The notes below the pieces were generated by a model, which was given only the letters and a program-made list of their open reading frames with translations, did not search any database and was not told the origin of the DNA. A stretch of 64,000 bases of DNA, taken from IMG/VR virus record IMGVR_UViG_3300045988_161152; one strand, given 5' to 3'. This DNA is from a virus (Duplodnaviria; Heunggongvirae; Uroviricota; Caudoviricetes). Below are positions 50,600 to 55,736 of this stretch, piece after piece. A program made the position numbers and the translations under genes. The first letter of the stretch is position 1; every line of letters starts with the position of its first letter.

Positions 50600-51115
50600 A
50601 TGGCGTTAACACACCGCGAACTCTGTCAGATTGCGTACAAGTTCCTTAAGCGCAACGGGTTCAAGGTTTGTTTTCATGACCGCTTTATAGCTGTAACCAG
50701 TACCGGAGAACAGCCAGATGCTATGGGATTCAGAAATTCAGCATCATGCCTGATAGAGGCGAAATGTTCTCGTGCTGACTTGTTGGCAGATAGAAAAAAG
50801 CGTTTTCGTAAAAATCCGTCTCTTGGAATGGGCGACTGGCGATTCTTTATTAGTGAGCCGGGAATTATTTCAATTGAGGATTTACCACCTGGCTGGGGAT
50901 TACTTCACGTTGTTAACGGAAGAGTACGGAAAGTACATGGGTGGCCCAAGGGTAATTGCTGTTGGGGTAATCCTGACGATAAGCCATTTACTGGAAATAA
51001 GCAGGTTGAATGCGATTACATGTTATCTGCATTAAGGCGTATGGAGTTGAGAGGGCACCTTAATGAAATATATGACGGTGTAATTGTTAATAAGAAAGAA
51101 GGAAACGCGGCATGA
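50600..51115 (+). CDS. PD-(D/E)XK nuclease-fold-like protein
   Basis: ATG 50600; PDAMGF...CLIEAKCS resembles a D...E-x-K core; weak. Confidence 0.35.
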   Translation: MALTHRELCQIAYKFLKRNGFKVCFHDRFIAVTSTGEQPDAMGFRNSASCLIEAKCSRADLLADRKKRFRKNPSLGMGDWRFFISEPGIISIEDLPPGWGLLHVVNGRVRKVHGWPKGNCCWGNPDDKPFTGNKQVECDYMLSALRRMELRGHLNEIYDGVIVNKKEGNAA

Positions 51116-52122
51116 CCACTATTGCCAAAGATCGACTACTGACAATCAAGCAGTGGCGCGAAACATACGGACCGGGTAGCAACGTTGTACTGCCAGCAGA
51201 AGAAGCGGAAGAACTGGCACGAATTGCTCTGGCATCGCTGGAAGCAGAGCCTGTTCTGTATCAGTCCTGCACTCGCCCCACTTGGAATAGCGGTGTTCCG
51301 TGGACGGAATGGAAAGAACGAAGTCGTGAGTGCTACGAAGACGATTTGCGCTTTACAGACACGCCTGACCATGCCGGTTGGATATACAAATGTCGAAAAT
51401 TATATACCACTCCGCCAGCGCCGATAGCGTTAGAGGCCATCGAAAACGCAATTGAATACATCCGCAGTATCGCTTTTCACATCGATGACGACGATTACCA
51501 CGGCAAACATATTGCGTATTTCATGCGACAAGCATTGGCCTGGCTGGAAGGGCATTCATGCAGCGACGACAGACTGGGTAAGGCCGACAATCAACCCGCA
51601 TCTGGTAACCAGGCTGCCGAATCCAATCGCGGTAATGAGTGGACCGGCAATCCTGATATTGATAACGCCATCATCATGCTCGACCGCATAGATACGGCGG
51701 AAAGTTGCGATGATGACCGTATTGAGGCCGTTAAGGCTGTGTTGCGTAGACTGGCAGGCAACTATCCGGATATTCCGGATAGTTCGGTGCCAGCGCCAGG
51801 AAAGGGCGTCACCGGTGAACGTATCCGCATTAAGCCGCATGTTTATCGCGAACTGGTTAACCGTCTCCACGATACAGCGATCAAGTGTGCTGGCACCCAG
51901 CAATTACGAGAAAGAATTAGCCGTGTTTTGGGCGACGTTATTACGCCATATCATCATAAACAAGCCGAGAAAAGCGGTCTGGAAAGGTGTCATCTTGAGG
52001 CAGCATTAAACATTAAGCCGGGGCATACGCTTGGCATTATTGATGCACTGTTGGTTCATAAGATGGCCAGGGCTTTATTGTCGTTGGTGGACGCTGGTGA
52101 TACAAGCGAGGGTGAAGTATGA
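51112..52122 (+). CDS. protein of unknown function (336 aa)
   Basis: Translationally coupled ORF. Confidence 0.3.
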   Translation: MTTIAKDRLLTIKQWRETYGPGSNVVLPAEEAEELARIALASLEAEPVLYQSCTRPTWNSGVPWTEWKERSRECYEDDLRFTDTPDHAGWIYKCRKLYTTPPAPIALEAIENAIEYIRSIAFHIDDDDYHGKHIAYFMRQALAWLEGHSCSDDRLGKADNQPASGNQAAESNRGNEWTGNPDIDNAIIMLDRIDTAESCDDDRIEAVKAVLRRLAGNYPDIPDSSVPAPGKGVTGERIRIKPHVYRELVNRLHDTAIKCAGTQQLRERISRVLGDVITPYHHKQAEKSGLERCHLEAALNIKPGHTLGIIDALLVHKMARALLSLVDAGDTSEGEV

Positions 52123-52481
52123 GAGTTGCAGATCACATCAAACACCTTGAAAGAATTATCGAAAACGGTGAACTCTTAAGAGATCAGATGAGACGCACGG
52201 CAGAAGCCAGGGAGGCGATAATCCGCAGTCAGGCTGGTAAATTAAAGCAATTGTCAGAGATTAACACGCTATACAAGAACAGACGTAACCGGGCGGTGAT
52301 GCGGCTTCAGAAAGCACGTAATGAAATTAAATTGGTGGAGGCAAAACTGAAAAAACAGATCCAGCGTTACGATCAGCAAGATGCTTTTTATGCCGCCATC
52401 AAGGCGGCTGCTAATGAAATAGGCATCTGGAAGTTGCTGGTGGAGAAAGCAAAGACGAAGTTAAATGCCAACGAAAGCTGA
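52119..52481 (+). CDS. coiled-coil protein of unknown function (120 aa), last gene of early operon
   Basis: Heptad-rich, basic. Confidence 0.3.
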   Translation: MRVADHIKHLERIIENGELLRDQMRRTAEAREAIIRSQAGKLKQLSEINTLYKNRRNRAVMRLQKARNEIKLVEAKLKKQIQRYDQQDAFYAAIKAAANEIGIWKLLVEKAKTKLNANES

Positions 52482-52537
52482 ACTACAGGTGCCCACCAGC
52501 ACATACAGAAAATGATTGTTTCCACATCAAGGAGATT

Positions 52538-52560
52538 TTAATGTTTCACTGAAACATTAA
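52538..52560. other. perfect palindrome TTAATGTTTCA-C-TGAAACATTAA
   Basis: 11-bp arms; overlaps stop codon of the minus-strand small ORF. Confidence 0.6.
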
Positions 52561-52694
52561 GTAAGCCAGTGCATAATTCCATTTTTTACTGACCTTAAAA
52601 GCAAAATCAAAACGATGATGAGGATAATAGCCAGAATCTGGCTAATAATAGGCGCATCTAAAAATGCACTCAGGAACTGAAAAAAAGCGTTCAT
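52557..52694 (-). CDS. small hydrophobic peptide (45 aa), type I toxin-like or holin-like; not in ORF track
   Basis: ATG 52694 with AAGGA SD 9 nt upstream; MNAFFQFLSAFLDAPIISQILAIILIIVLILLLRSVKNGIMHWLT. Confidence 0.35.
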   Translation of the reverse strand: MNAFFQFLSAFLDAPIISQILAIILIIVLILLLRSVKNGIMHWLT

Positions 52695-53556
52695 TCAGGT
52701 GGTTCCTTGTCAAATGTAAAGGTGCACTTGCTCACGTTGACGTAGAAACCCAACCCCTATATAGTTGGATTCGGTGAATGAAAGTCGTTAACGTGAGCTT
52801 ACGGCACATGTTTTCGGAAAAACATCAGGGAACGGCTAATTCCTTGATGCGGGTGGGGTCTGTAATACAGACCCTATCTATTAACGTCATGATTGCATCT
52901 CAAATTTTCTCCTTATCTTCAATTAATCTACATTCATTTCATCTGTTAGCCACCACAATATGTAGAAAATGGCCCTCTTGCAAGTGCATAACTTTGTGGA
53001 TAACTCAGGAAGGAAAAAGTGGCTTTCGCGCACCTTCGGTCAGACAAGGTGTCCGGGAAAGTCAACGCAAAGAAAAAAATTGTTAAAAATAACGTTTGTT
53101 GGAATTGTATATTTTTATCCCCTTCAATGGTTAGCATTCCATTAACATCTTTTTTTAGAGACAGAAAAACATATCGTAACAACATATATACAGTATTAAG
53201 AGGCGAGTATTATCCTGCGGTGGGAATTCTGGGCGCTGTTAGATTCGACTTTCTCAGCAGGATTACATCGTCAACTTGCGACGTTGCCGTATGACTTTCG
53301 TGTAATAGGTGACAATGATGCGGCTAGTGAGTTACTTGTGAAGTTTTTCGGAAAAGGTTTTGTGGCCTCGGATCTTGATGAGCTACAGCAACATGAAGTG
53401 TCTAATTTGATTTTTAGCCATAGCCAATAAGCCTCCCTCCTCCATCAAGGCCACAATTTGTGACCTTAAACAATTTGTTTTCTGCTTTTTCTTATTTGAG
53501 AAAATAACGTTGTTGACAGCTAATAGGCTCGTTGTTGTTATACATGCCTGTATAGA

Positions 53557-53913
53557 TTATGACCGTAAATTATTAGCGGATTTTAAGCCATATTCACCGT
53601 TGTAGAAATTACTCATGTTCCATTCATTAGGAAGTTCTTTTCTGTCCAATGTATAGTGGCGCACGATATAACGATCTTCATCTTCTTCGATGGACAGGCG
53701 GACATAGCCAATGTGGATCACCGATACGGGCGGTGTTCGTATTGCATAGATGTCGCGGAGATATACCGGTAGCTCGACAAATGCATCAGGTGCATCTGTG
53801 ATGCTCGTTTTTTCACAGTATTCATATAACGCATCGTTGATATCGTTAAGAGATTCATGATCGTATATTTCCAGGTAATTACCGCGATCGCGATGGTACT
53901 CGATTTTAGCCAT
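53557..53913 (-). CDS. protein of unknown function (118 aa)
   Basis: Second gene of minus-strand pair divergent from humD. Confidence 0.35.
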   Translation of the reverse strand: MAKIEYHRDRGNYLEIYDHESLNDINDALYEYCEKTSITDAPDAFVELPVYLRDIYAIRTPPVSVIHIGYVRLSIEEDEDRYIVRHYTLDRKELPNEWNMSNFYNGEYGLKSANNLRS

Positions 53914-54498
53914 TCAAAATCCCCTGTTATCGTTTTGCATTTCTCTAATCCGGTTCAGAACTACTTCATGCTGGGCTTGGATAGCGGCTTTTTCGTTTTC
54001 AAGTCGGGCAATAGACATCTCTAATTCTTTGCTGTACCAGGCGAGTTGGGCCAGGTTCATCCGGTTGTGGTCGAGAGTTGGAGACACTTCGACGCGCTCC
54101 CTTTCTTCCTGCTTTAATGAGAAGAGATTCATCTCATCCCTAGAGGAAAATTCAGCAACAATTTCTTGTTGATGATCCGGTCGCTGCGGCATCCTCGCCA
54201 GTATAAATGGCGGTTCTTTTGAAAACATGAATGTCGGTTCAGAACGTGTTTTCACCCATCTAGCCTGCTGTCTTTCGGCAAGTTCACAGGCTTCATCATA
54301 GTTATTTGCCAAACCAAGCACGGATGGGCGGTCCCACGCGCCACCATTCAGACAATAAACAACAATTTTCCCGTCATGTTCTGTAACCCCATAGGGATGG
54401 TCCCACCAGGCGTCCAGCTGAGCTTTAGAGCGTTTCTCGTTAGGAGTGCAGTCAAAATTTTTGGGCAATACAGGATCGAGAGGAATGCGATTAGGCAT
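53914..54498 (-). CDS. protein of unknown function (194 aa), candidate LexA-regulated gene (P1 lxr region)
   Basis: Starts 138 bp from the LexA box shared with humD. Confidence 0.35.
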   Translation of the reverse strand: MPNRIPLDPVLPKNFDCTPNEKRSKAQLDAWWDHPYGVTEHDGKIVVYCLNGGAWDRPSVLGLANNYDEACELAERQQARWVKTRSEPTFMFSKEPPFILARMPQRPDHQQEIVAEFSSRDEMNLFSLKQEERERVEVSPTLDHNRMNLAQLAWYSKELEMSIARLENEKAAIQAQHEVVLNRIREMQNDNRGF

Positions 54499-54635
54499 AG
54501 CTAATTCCTTATTAACTGATTGGCAACGAGGTTACGCTGATCCGTTGGTGATGAATAGTAGCAAAGAGCACAAAATCATCAGCGGTGGTTGATGTACGTA
54601 ACGCGTTTGCACCAAAGGTGTCTCTTTAATGTATA

Positions 54636-54651
54636 CTGTATAAATGAACAG
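54636..54651. promoter_or_regulatory. LexA (SOS) box CTGTATAAATGAACAG
   Basis: CTGT-N8-ACAG inside TACTGTATAAATGAACAGTA, 22 bp upstream of humD. Confidence 0.8.
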
Positions 54652-54672
54652 TATTATTGAGGTGAAAACGCT

Positions 54673-55062
54673 ATGGGCTTCCCTTCTCCTGCGGCGGATT
54701 ATGTTGAAAGCCGAATTTCTCTTGATCAGCAACTAATCAGGCATCCATCAGCAACCTACTTCATGCGGGCAGCTGATAGCCATCACCGTGAGGGAATATT
54801 GCAGGGTGCTTTGCTGGTGGTTGATTCCTCGCTTACTCCGGTTGATGGTTCTCTGCTTGTCTGCGCTATGGAGGGTGAATATCGCATAAAGAGATACCGA
54901 AAGTATCCGCGCCAGCACCTGGAGGATTTAAGCACCGGGAAGAAAGAGGCGTTACCAGTAGATGACGATGGTTACACGGGTAGTAATGCTGTTTTTGGTG
55001 TGATCACTCATGTCATCAATGATGCCCGAAGTGGGGAATTTGATGATTGTCCGGTGATTTAA
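54673..55062 (+). CDS. humD: UmuD'-like translesion-synthesis accessory protein HumD
   Basis: MGFPSPAADYVESRISLDQQLIRHPSATYF... aligns with UmuD from its processed N-terminus. Confidence 0.8.
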   Translation: MGFPSPAADYVESRISLDQQLIRHPSATYFMRAADSHHREGILQGALLVVDSSLTPVDGSLLVCAMEGEYRIKRYRKYPRQHLEDLSTGKKEALPVDDDGYTGSNAVFGVITHVINDARSGEFDDCPVI

Positions 55063-55134
55063 GCTGCAAAGTGCTGGTGCTTTATGCCTGTGAAGTTTAT
55101 AATTGTGTACACATAACGAGTACACGAGGTGTTT

Positions 55135-55356
55135 ATGCAATCCATTAACTTCCGTACCGCGCGCGGCAACCTTTCTGAAGTGCTCAACAATGTTGAAGCC
55201 GGGGAAGAGGTTGAAATCACCCGCAGAGGCCGTGAGCCAGCAGTAATTGTCAGCAAGGCTACTTTCGAAGCCTACAAAAAAGCGGCGCTGGATGCTGAAT
55301 TTGCATCCCTGTTTGACACCCTGGACTCCACCAACAAGGAACTGGTTAACCGATAA
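55135..55356 (+). CDS. phd: antitoxin Phd
   Basis: 73 aa, [41 protein letters not shown]... Confidence 0.9.
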
Positions 55357-55736
55357 TGAGACATATATCACCGGAAGAACTTGTTGCGCTTCATGATGCG
55401 AATATAAGCCGCTACGGCGGCCTGCCGGGAATGTCTGATCCGGGTAGGGCAGAGGCCATTATCGGGAGAGTTCAGGCCAGAGTTGCCTACGAAGAGATCA
55501 CCGACCTTTTCGAAGTCTCCGCCACCTACCTGGTGGCTACAGCGAGAGGGCATATATTCAATGATGCCAATAAGCGTACCGCGCTAAACAGTGCGCTGCT
55601 ATTTCTACGCCGTAACGGGGTGCAGGTATTTGATTCACCTGAACTGGCAGACCTTACCGTAGGCGCTGCGACTGGCGAGATATCTGTATCTTCTGTCGCC
55701 GACACGTTACGTAGATTGTATGGTTCTGCGGAGTAG
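55356..55736 (+). CDS. doc: toxin Doc (Fic-fold kinase)
   Basis: 126 aa, [36 protein letters not shown]...; start overlaps phd stop. Confidence 0.9.

Follow-up and report, generated by a model that had tools for sequence, protein, structure and literature searches.

A candidate locus laid out like a type I toxin–antitoxin system in an AT-rich island of P1/P7-type plasmid prophages

What does a plasmid prophage of the P1 family keep in a stretch of DNA that annotation either leaves empty or fills with doubtful plus-strand ORFs (open reading frames)? P1, long a model phage, is also widespread as a plasmid prophage carrying resistance genes, and the question is raised by positions 52482–53556 of a 64,000-nucleotide stretch of viral DNA (IMG/VR record IMGVR_UViG_3300045988_161152; this whole length is the window below), which belongs to a P1/P7-type plasmid prophage. 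An original prediction had seen there an AT-rich interval of 1.1 kb devoid of any credible long ORF and holding a toxin-like minus-strand ORF of 45 amino acids (aa). The description of the interval stands: the island has a GC content of 39.3%, against 48.0% for the window, and a plasmid 100% identical over window positions 51000–55500 has zero PGAP genes between 52482 and 53556.

The interval is composed of two unrelated halves. The left one is a conserved, unannotated unit and the right one is recombination debris. In the left half, two convergent promoters and a stable plus-strand fold predict an RNA antisense to the leader of the 45-aa ORF, and this candidate locus looks like a type I toxin–antitoxin system in its layout.

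Over 1.9 kb around the interval, the window shares 99.5% identity with phage P7 and is matched at 100% by many IncY-type plasmids of Escherichia coli and Salmonella, and P1 covers 51% of this length. P7 is colinear with the window save for an IS903 inserted at 53294–53302. P1 aligns only over 51753–53102 (94%) and 53931–55500 (98%), the part at 52500–53030 being colinear with its upfM–upfO stretch. The pmgT–humD stretch is known as a hypervariable part of P1-like phage-plasmids, their 'variable region 8' (PMC9603915). The left module, whose neighbours are pmgV, humD and lxr-like genes, is common to P1, P7 and a more divergent P1-like lineage. No record annotates it as a whole: upfM, upfN, upfO and the promoter PupfN in P1, and upf91.3–upf91.7 in P7, are annotated over the same DNA, and the 45-aa ORF is called in some records only. 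PmgV, used as an anchor for distant relatives, retrieved close relatives only, so that more distant relatives of P1 were not reached.

The minus-strand ORF

The 45-aa ORF (MNAFFQFLSAFLDAPIISQILAIILIIVLILLLRSVKNGIMHWLT) occupies 52557–52694 on the minus strand. A Shine–Dalgarno (SD) sequence, AAGGAA (52708–52703, minus strand), lies 8 nt before its ATG, and the ORF with its good SD is thus present as first described. The deduced peptide has a GRAVY value of 1.56, one hydrophobic helix and a basic C-terminal tail of net positive charge. It agrees with the single-helix architecture proposed at the outset and has the character of the small (below about 60 aa) hydrophobic membrane peptides of type I systems. 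The ORF is intact in 55 of the 55 loci with enough flanking sequence. The P1 copy is 96% identical, with two amino-acid changes, and PGAP calls it in some P1-type plasmids as WP_000123562.1. The curated P1 and P7 records do not contain it and annotate plus-strand ORFs instead.

This P1 copy bears on two suggestions made earlier. The ORF had been proposed as part of a content that replaced P1 genes; it lies in the P1-colinear part and is not a replacement. The contrary possibility, an interval colinear with P1 in which the small ORF is not conserved, is true of the alignment in the left part only, but the ORF is conserved there, and P1 does not align over 53103–53930.

In the divergent lineage (the L004/L006 type), 33 of the 138 nucleotides of the ORF differ, with the same start, stop and length and zero indels; indels between the lineages are present in both flanks. 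The two peptides are identical at 26 of 45 residues and show conservative changes elsewhere. Stops and frameshifts interrupt the plus-strand upfM and upfN/upf91.4 in this lineage. When the same 33 substitutions were placed at random, the ORF remained open in 7.8% of trials, and remained open with at least the observed similarity in 1.4%. The SD of the divergent type is GAGGA with a spacer one base shorter, and folding predicts that the SD of both lineages pairs with a conserved upstream GGGUUUCU.

A related unannotated ORF of 33 aa was found in 25 plasmids of Klebsiella, Enterobacter and Citrobacter, with the common motif AFLxAPhhSQ...LIW..K. Its similarity amounts to z = 12.9 with the divergent 45-aa variant and z = 8.0 with the window peptide, and none of 2000 shuffles reached the score. 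From these sequence comparisons we are fairly confident that the 45-aa ORF is a real gene, and it probably encodes a single-pass membrane peptide.

Some natural variants of the ORF are disrupted near the C-terminal end. The plasmid pNord122_1 has an IS1 at 52579–52586, inside the 3′ end of the ORF, by which the last six residues are replaced, and a second, independent IS1 insertion is found in the ORF of the divergent lineage (P0003). Public assemblies also hold two frameshifted variants (P0001 and P0004) and one with a junction after residue 31 (P0002). No natural insertion was found in the structured RNA or in the two promoters described below. This recurrent disruption is compatible with relief from a harmful product, and equally with neutrality or with a preference of IS1 for AT-rich targets.

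Predicted facing promoters, a predicted structured RNA and two palindromes

Upstream of the ORF and on the opposite strand, a predicted sigma-70 promoter (TTGACG, 17-nt spacer, TATAGT) extends over 52737–52765. With 14.1 bits it obtains the top score on either strand in every lineage, and both hexamers are the same in all 55 loci. The P1 record lists it as the predicted promoter 'PupfN'. On this DNA the P1 annotation has the promoter in common with ours; the annotations of P1 and P7 differ in that their plus-strand ORFs are unconserved, whereas the conserved ORF lies on the other strand.

The 117 nt downstream of this promoter have a minimum free energy (MFE) of −43.2 kcal/mol (z = −5.5), against −28.8 kcal/mol (z = −3.0) for the reverse complement; the plus strand folds better because its stems use G·U pairs. 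The predicted RNA (52769–52885, plus strand) would measure about 115 nt, form three hairpins and be fully complementary to the predicted leader of the small ORF. The same three-hairpin fold is obtained for the divergent type (z = −4.2), where a compensatory pair is seen at 52859/52871 in hairpin 3 (T-to-C and A-to-G) and three substitutions fall in the loop of hairpin 2. The ORF motif and the core of the RNA block occur in the same set of 54 viral contigs.

On the minus strand, the best candidate upstream of the ORF (10.2 bits) is an nrdA-type promoter at 52955–52983, with its −35 TTGCAA at 52983–52978, a 17-nt spacer and its −10 TATTGT at 52960–52955. It overlaps a copy of the DNA upstream of host nrdA: 66 bp (52965–53030, minus strand) are 97–100% identical to the E. 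coli chromosome and match 5426 of 5426 complete E. coli genomes. This copy contains a double DnaA box, TTATCCACA (53003–52995) and TTATGCACT (52991–52983) separated by AAG. The arrangement, TTATCCACA-N3-TTATGCACT abutting the −35 with a −10 at 17 nt, is by sequence that of a DnaA-regulated promoter of the nrdAB type. Since nrdA is on the minus strand in the orientation of the window, the captured promoter would fire leftward, toward the ORF, with a predicted start near 52948 and a leader of about 254 nt. The geometry of the host promoter, whose leader we take to be about 110 nt, fits this assignment.

The identity to the host ends past the −35, about 14 nt before the host start. Every lineage nevertheless has a −10-like hexamer 17 nt from the −35: the host and the phage-plasmid pLF82 have TATCTT, P1 and P7 TATTGT, and the divergent type TACTGT. 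The prophage thus shares with E. coli the 66 bp, both DnaA boxes, the −35 and the spacing, but differs in its −10 hexamer, leader and downstream gene. Host nrdAB has further regulatory inputs, among them a DnaA-ATP-specific box, Fis and IciA. The divergent lineage has the double DnaA box at 100% identity; the box is kept in 54 of 55 loci and also present in pLF82. An 'nrdA-like promoter' with a dnaA box was already annotated on this strand by Lehnherr and colleagues (M95666). The double box is one of 16 regions bound by DnaA in chromatin immunoprecipitation sequencing (nrdA site in Table 1 of PMC11317965), and DnaA activates or represses nrdAB according to its level and bound nucleotide (PMC8203912). 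The two promoters of the module are convergent and about 176 bp apart. We consider each of them, and the structured RNA, somewhat likelier than not to be real.

In pLF82 (L064, NC_011917.1), the same nrdA-type promoter and double DnaA box are found at about 2505–2385 on the minus strand. A strong bidirectional terminator (AAAAAGCCCAG...CTGGGCTTTTT) follows about 70 nt after the promoter, an arrangement pointing to a small RNA of about 80 nt, DnaA-controlled and so far unannotated.

The conservation pattern follows these predicted elements. The lineage represented by L006 is 94–100% identical to P1 across humD, phd and doc and 63–90% identical across the variable region. Between this lineage and the window, identity is 97% in the segment of the plus-strand promoter, 86% in the RNA hairpins, 97% in the tail of the RNA block, 100% in the double DnaA box and 83% from the −10 to the −35 of the nrdA-type promoter. 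The ORF segment stands at 76%, the proximal leader at 58% and the 3′ flank at 65%, and the spacer from the RNA block to the nrdA-type −10, where an 18-bp indel occurs, falls to 51%. Within this diverged stretch, identity peaks where the predicted elements lie.

A scan of the module found no C1 operators and no LexA boxes, and the module should therefore be expressed in the lysogen. The whole window has 15 matches to the operator consensus of the P1 C1 repressor (at most 3 mismatches), where chance would give 0.18. Such sites are usual for a P1-type genome, and the nearest is more than 5 kb from the module.

The stop codon of the ORF (52557–52559) lies, as originally observed, in a perfect inverted repeat with 11-nt arms and a 1-nt centre (TTAATGTTTCA/TGAAACATTAA; 52538–52560, minus strand). 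Among 1000 dinucleotide-shuffled versions of the region, 0.2% held a perfect arm of 11 nt or more and 0.5% held two or more arms of 9 nt or more. This palindrome 1 is not conserved as DNA: the commonest P1-type allele (L005 type) has lost 1 nt of it, and in the L004 type the repeat is imperfect. In the L004/L006 type, the best fold of the minus strand (−8.8 kcal/mol, 47 nt) has an 8-bp hairpin with a G·U pair at this position, and the best fold of the plus strand does not form it. Homology between the lineages starts about 57 nt past the stop codon, just outside the hairpin. By these three features, palindrome 1 behaves more like the 3′ hairpin of a small-ORF transcript than like a protein-binding site. 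The second palindrome, first placed at 52858–52874, is real but larger, with perfect 9-nt arms (GGGTCTGTA/TACAGACCC) at 52856–52874, its coordinates having been one base off. In the predicted plus-strand RNA it makes up the upper part of hairpin 3.

Smaller features of the module were also seen. A third, imperfect palindrome (TAATAGCCAGA/TCTGGCTAATA; 11-nt arms, 91%) lies at 52625–52647 inside the coding sequence of the ORF and is lost in the divergent lineage. Two mini-ORFs of three codons have a perfect AAGGAG: AAGGAG-6-ATGTTTCACTGA inside palindrome 1 (52529–52552, plus strand) and AAGGAG-10-ATGCAATCATGA in the conserved tail of the RNA block (about 52912–52884, minus strand). Neither is kept in the divergent lineage, where the second collapses to ATG-TAA, and both were rejected as coding. 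The AAGGAG of the leader is itself retained and might act as a ribosome standby or start–stop element. A minus-strand ORF of 21 codons in the block was likewise rejected as coding, its substitutions being mostly non-synonymous.

A proposed mechanism and its rivals

These elements can be assembled into a scheme. The nrdA promoter copy with its double DnaA box would drive leftward transcription from about 52948, through the leader and the 45-codon gene (52694–52560), to an end at the hairpin of palindrome 1. The facing strong sigma-70 promoter would make the three-hairpin plus-strand RNA. Abundant antisense RNA, together with transcriptional interference, would most likely hold the peptide mRNA silent or unstable, and the peptide would be made only when this balance shifts, for example upon a change of DnaA status or upon plasmid loss. 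We put forward this full antisense-gated, toxin-like mechanism tentatively, with a chance that we place a little short of even. The stronger proposal of an unrecognised type I toxin–antitoxin system with a new toxin family, in which killing or growth arrest would follow the replication-initiation status of the host (DnaA-ATP level) and not the SOS response, and which would form a second, RNA-based module for addiction or stress beside phd/doc, would be speculative, and we regard it as unlikely.

The comparison with known systems supports the layout. Like hok/sok of plasmid R1 and ldrD/rdlD of E. coli, the module would combine a hydrophobic single-helix peptide of less than 60 aa and a long 5′ leader with a strong constitutive promoter on the opposite strand, a short structured RNA predicted to be complementary to the leader and not to the coding region, an SD predicted to be sequestered in the full-length mRNA, and a low-copy plasmid replicon. 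It differs from them by having no sequence similarity, no mok-like overlapping frame and no U-rich terminator after the antisense RNA, and by a toxin-side promoter that is a captured nrdA/DnaA promoter. As in tisB/istR-1 and dinQ/agrB, a membrane-peptide promoter wired to DNA metabolism would be countered by an adjacent constitutive small RNA, and the neighbours of the module, humD and lxr, are DNA-damage response genes. Those two systems are controlled by LexA, whereas the P1 module has no LexA box, has the nrdA double DnaA box and shows no sequence similarity to them. The idea of a type I toxin thus finds support in the layout, a long leader faced by a strong promoter and a predicted structured antisense RNA, but not in any family match. 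Because the peptide matches no named family and its toxicity is only predicted, we describe the locus as one that works like a type I system and not as one that is a type I system.

If the scheme is correct, the annotation of P1 and P7 would need a small minus-strand gene and an antisense RNA instead of upfM and upfN. P1-like plasmids might then hold a second maintenance or stress module besides phd/doc. A mobile element would also have captured a DnaA-controlled host promoter for its own small gene, linking the behaviour of the prophage to the replication status of its host.

Several observations weigh against this antisense-gated reading. The dN/dS of the ORF is 0.41 and its substitutions are spread 12/8/13 over the codon positions, which is moderate coding evidence only. 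The architecture of the peptide had been likened to that of type I toxins and small holins; neither it nor its variants match such families, or any family of defence proteins, in Pfam, NCBIfam or PADLOC (E-values up to 1–10) or in PHROGs. An exhaustive HMMER search of 1.84 billion protein representatives returned P1-family variants only, all of them 'hypothetical'. Covariation in the RNA is weak: there is one compensatory pair, equalled by 80 of 500 shuffles in a comparison that is underpowered and not significant. Substitutions in paired columns are not depleted (7 of 15, about 9 being expected); three of them disrupt a terminal or apical pair. The U-tract after hairpin 3 is poor and a longer RNA adds no further hairpin, which leaves the 3′ end of the RNA undefined, and the RNA may read on in P1 toward hot, the gene for a DNA polymerase III theta homolog. 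No promoter layout comparable to that of the module was found for the 33-aa relative. The comparative power comes from essentially one divergent lineage, so that micro-mosaic recombination could mimic the conservation peaks. The literature consulted yielded no P1 transcript map or small-RNA report for this region. Additionally, upfM/N/O are reported to be non-essential for lytic growth (PMC10695390), which is neutral as to a function in the lysogen and lends no support.

Searches for a family went further without placing the peptide. Its best family match, phrog_1184, is not significant (E = 0.058), and it matches none of the profiles of the named type I toxin families (Hok/Gef, Ldr, TisB, Ibs, ShoB, ZorO, DinQ/DqlB, Fst and others). 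Rfam families of antitoxins and toxin mRNAs stayed below threshold, the best being BsrG with 16.7 bits for a cut-off of 55, and permissive thresholds gave chance-level matches. Word-indexed and profile searches found nothing beyond the P1-family variants and the 33-aa ORF. Scans of genome collections gave either no confirmed match or 12 matches in unrelated metagenome-assembled genomes, close to the chance estimate. Scans of viral contigs with three relaxed patterns returned the same set of about 54 P1-like contigs and one further contig (L065), where the pattern fell by chance within the coding sequence of an unrelated gene. Membership of the Ldr or Fst family, suggested by a 'DAPII/AAPIL' motif, was rejected, the shuffle z being 0.3–4.1 with no HMM support. 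The 33-aa module was also considered as an independent replicate; it has neither alignable upstream DNA nor a credible promoter and therefore gives no support.

The same anatomy would serve a benign small membrane protein, acting in lysogenic conversion, in exclusion or as a modulator of a host membrane protein, tuned by DnaA, damped by convergent transcription and without any toxin–antitoxin or addiction role. Many bacterial single-helix small proteins are not toxic. The peptide has no toxin-family similarity, and P1 already possesses an adjacent addiction system in phd/doc. A strong, invariant antisense promoter set against a long leader is nevertheless more typical of products that are kept off, and the recurrent C-terminal disruptions (two independent IS1, two frameshifts and one junction) fit a harmful product, though they fit neutrality too; we give this explanation a limited chance. 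If the peptide acted instead in lytic growth, as a small holin, an antiholin or a lysis-timing factor, its single transmembrane helix and charged C-terminus would be accounted for, but the lysis genes of P1 are not adjacent, and no late (Lpa-type) or C1-controlled promoter is present where the predicted control is by sigma-70 and DnaA. There is also no holin match in Pfam or PHROGs that would place it in such a family, and in CRISPR interference and deletion data the neighbouring features are dispensable for plaque formation (PMC10695390). This role is hardly credible.

Two further explanations would leave the ORF out. The conserved block could be PupfN followed by a structured 5′ leader for hot, orphaned in the P7-type window, the ORF being fortuitous or unrelated. 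In its favour, hot follows on the same strand in both P1 and the divergent lineage, read-through is plausible with the poor U-tract of hairpin 3, and the covariation is weak for a discrete small RNA. Conservation, however, ends at about 52916, and the next 40–60 bp toward hot are the most variable (51% with the 18-bp indel). Moreover, hot has its own mapped late promoter, and the convergent nrdA-type promoter stands between it and the block. The constraint on the ORF (the 1.4% test) and its 33-aa relative elsewhere also speak against a fortuitous ORF. More than 90 P7-type plasmids without hot retain the plus-strand promoter and RNA block in full, but their kinship is too close for this to weigh much. 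On balance a hot leader is distinctly unlikely. The module might equally have no function, the interval being a recombination hotspot with captured host DNA, IS targets and decayed genes in which palindromes and ORF are by-products of an AT-rich mosaic. Its position in variable region 8 (PMC9603915), the demonstrable debris of the right half, the landing of three different IS elements in the interval, the dispensability of upfM/N/O (PMC10695390) and the lack of conservation of palindrome 1 as DNA are all in keeping with this view. It is at odds with the ORF and plus-strand hexamers intact in 55 of 55 loci and the DnaA boxes in 54, with identity peaks that match the elements, with a promoter geometry kept in four lineages (P1, P7, the divergent type and pLF82), with the strand asymmetry of the RNA fold (z = −5.5) and with the ORF constraint, and we judge it decidedly improbable. 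Were the module indeed not real, the island would still be explained as a mosaic junction of host promoter capture, SSU5-type debris and IS targets.

The right half and related modules

Read by its homologies, the right half (53030–53556) is gene and promoter debris and not a non-coding regulatory region. The DNA at 53031–53225 (plus strand) is a decayed version of the LexA-controlled umuD promoter region of SSU5/pLF82-type phage-plasmids, with 82% identity to pLF82 over window positions 52979–53213. The right half of a LexA box remains (TATACAGTA, 53187–53195), as does an SD, AAGAGG (53198–53203). Relative to pLF82, whose box is TACTGTATGTGTATACAGTA, the window copy has lost 11 bp with the left half of the LexA box, and 13 bp (ATGGGCTTCCCTT) with the umuD start codon. 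Next to it, 53230–53430 (plus strand) holds a 5′-truncated primase/Toprim-like remnant, the last 66 codons and the stop. It matches residues 109–174 of a primase-like protein of phage PhiR41_1 (88% aa identity), where the gene is intact and encodes 174 aa, and phrog_17952, 'DNA primase', with E = 2.4e-26. IS elements have landed in or beside this remnant, the IS903 of P7 at 53294–53302 and an ISKpn26 at 53239–53242 in a Salmonella plasmid. Counting the IS1 at the 3′ end of the ORF, three different IS elements are found in the interval among relatives.

The original prediction had also supposed that the hot and lxr content expected from P1 was replaced. This is true of hot but not of lxr. A segment of 828 bp (53103–53930), which appears as a gap in the P1 alignment, replaces 306 bp of P1 comprising the −10 of the late promoter and hot. 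No ORF homologous to Hot/HolE is found between upfO and lxr, and the P1 hot segment (L002 2502–2807) has no counterpart in the window, as in P7. A homolog of lxr is present at 53914–54498 (minus strand), just outside the interval. The 45-aa ORF being present in P1, replacement is limited to 53103–53930. The replacing segment includes upf93.6 (53557–53913, minus strand) and the 3′ end of the lxr-like gene. For the products of upf93.6 (118 aa) and of the lxr-like gene (194 aa), the only matches are phrog_5797 and phrog_6164, both of unknown function, and no defence-system model fits them.

Other phage-plasmids and plasmids hold small ORFs of similar character. In pLF82, an 800-bp unannotated gap upstream of umuD contains an unannotated amphipathic ORF of 27 aa (MVNLLFKIVPPMFAIIKAIIEYVNQRP; 2087–2004, minus strand) with the SD GTGAGG and its own GC-rich terminator. 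It resembles TisB and DinQ in size and character and has no PADLOC match. The 33-aa ORF (MVLLLDAFLSAPLLSQCAATVFLLLLIWLKKME) is carried by a sharp-bordered module of about 215 bp, located at 2386–2600 in the locus L061 (K. pneumoniae plasmid pKP124-3-NDM-4) and at the same coordinates in L062. This module occurs in 25 PLSDB plasmids and in 125 contigs of a large collection, where the ORF is unannotated or 'hypothetical' and no promoter was found for it. In L062, it lies about 900 bp from dqlB, an annotated DinQ-like type I toxin gene.

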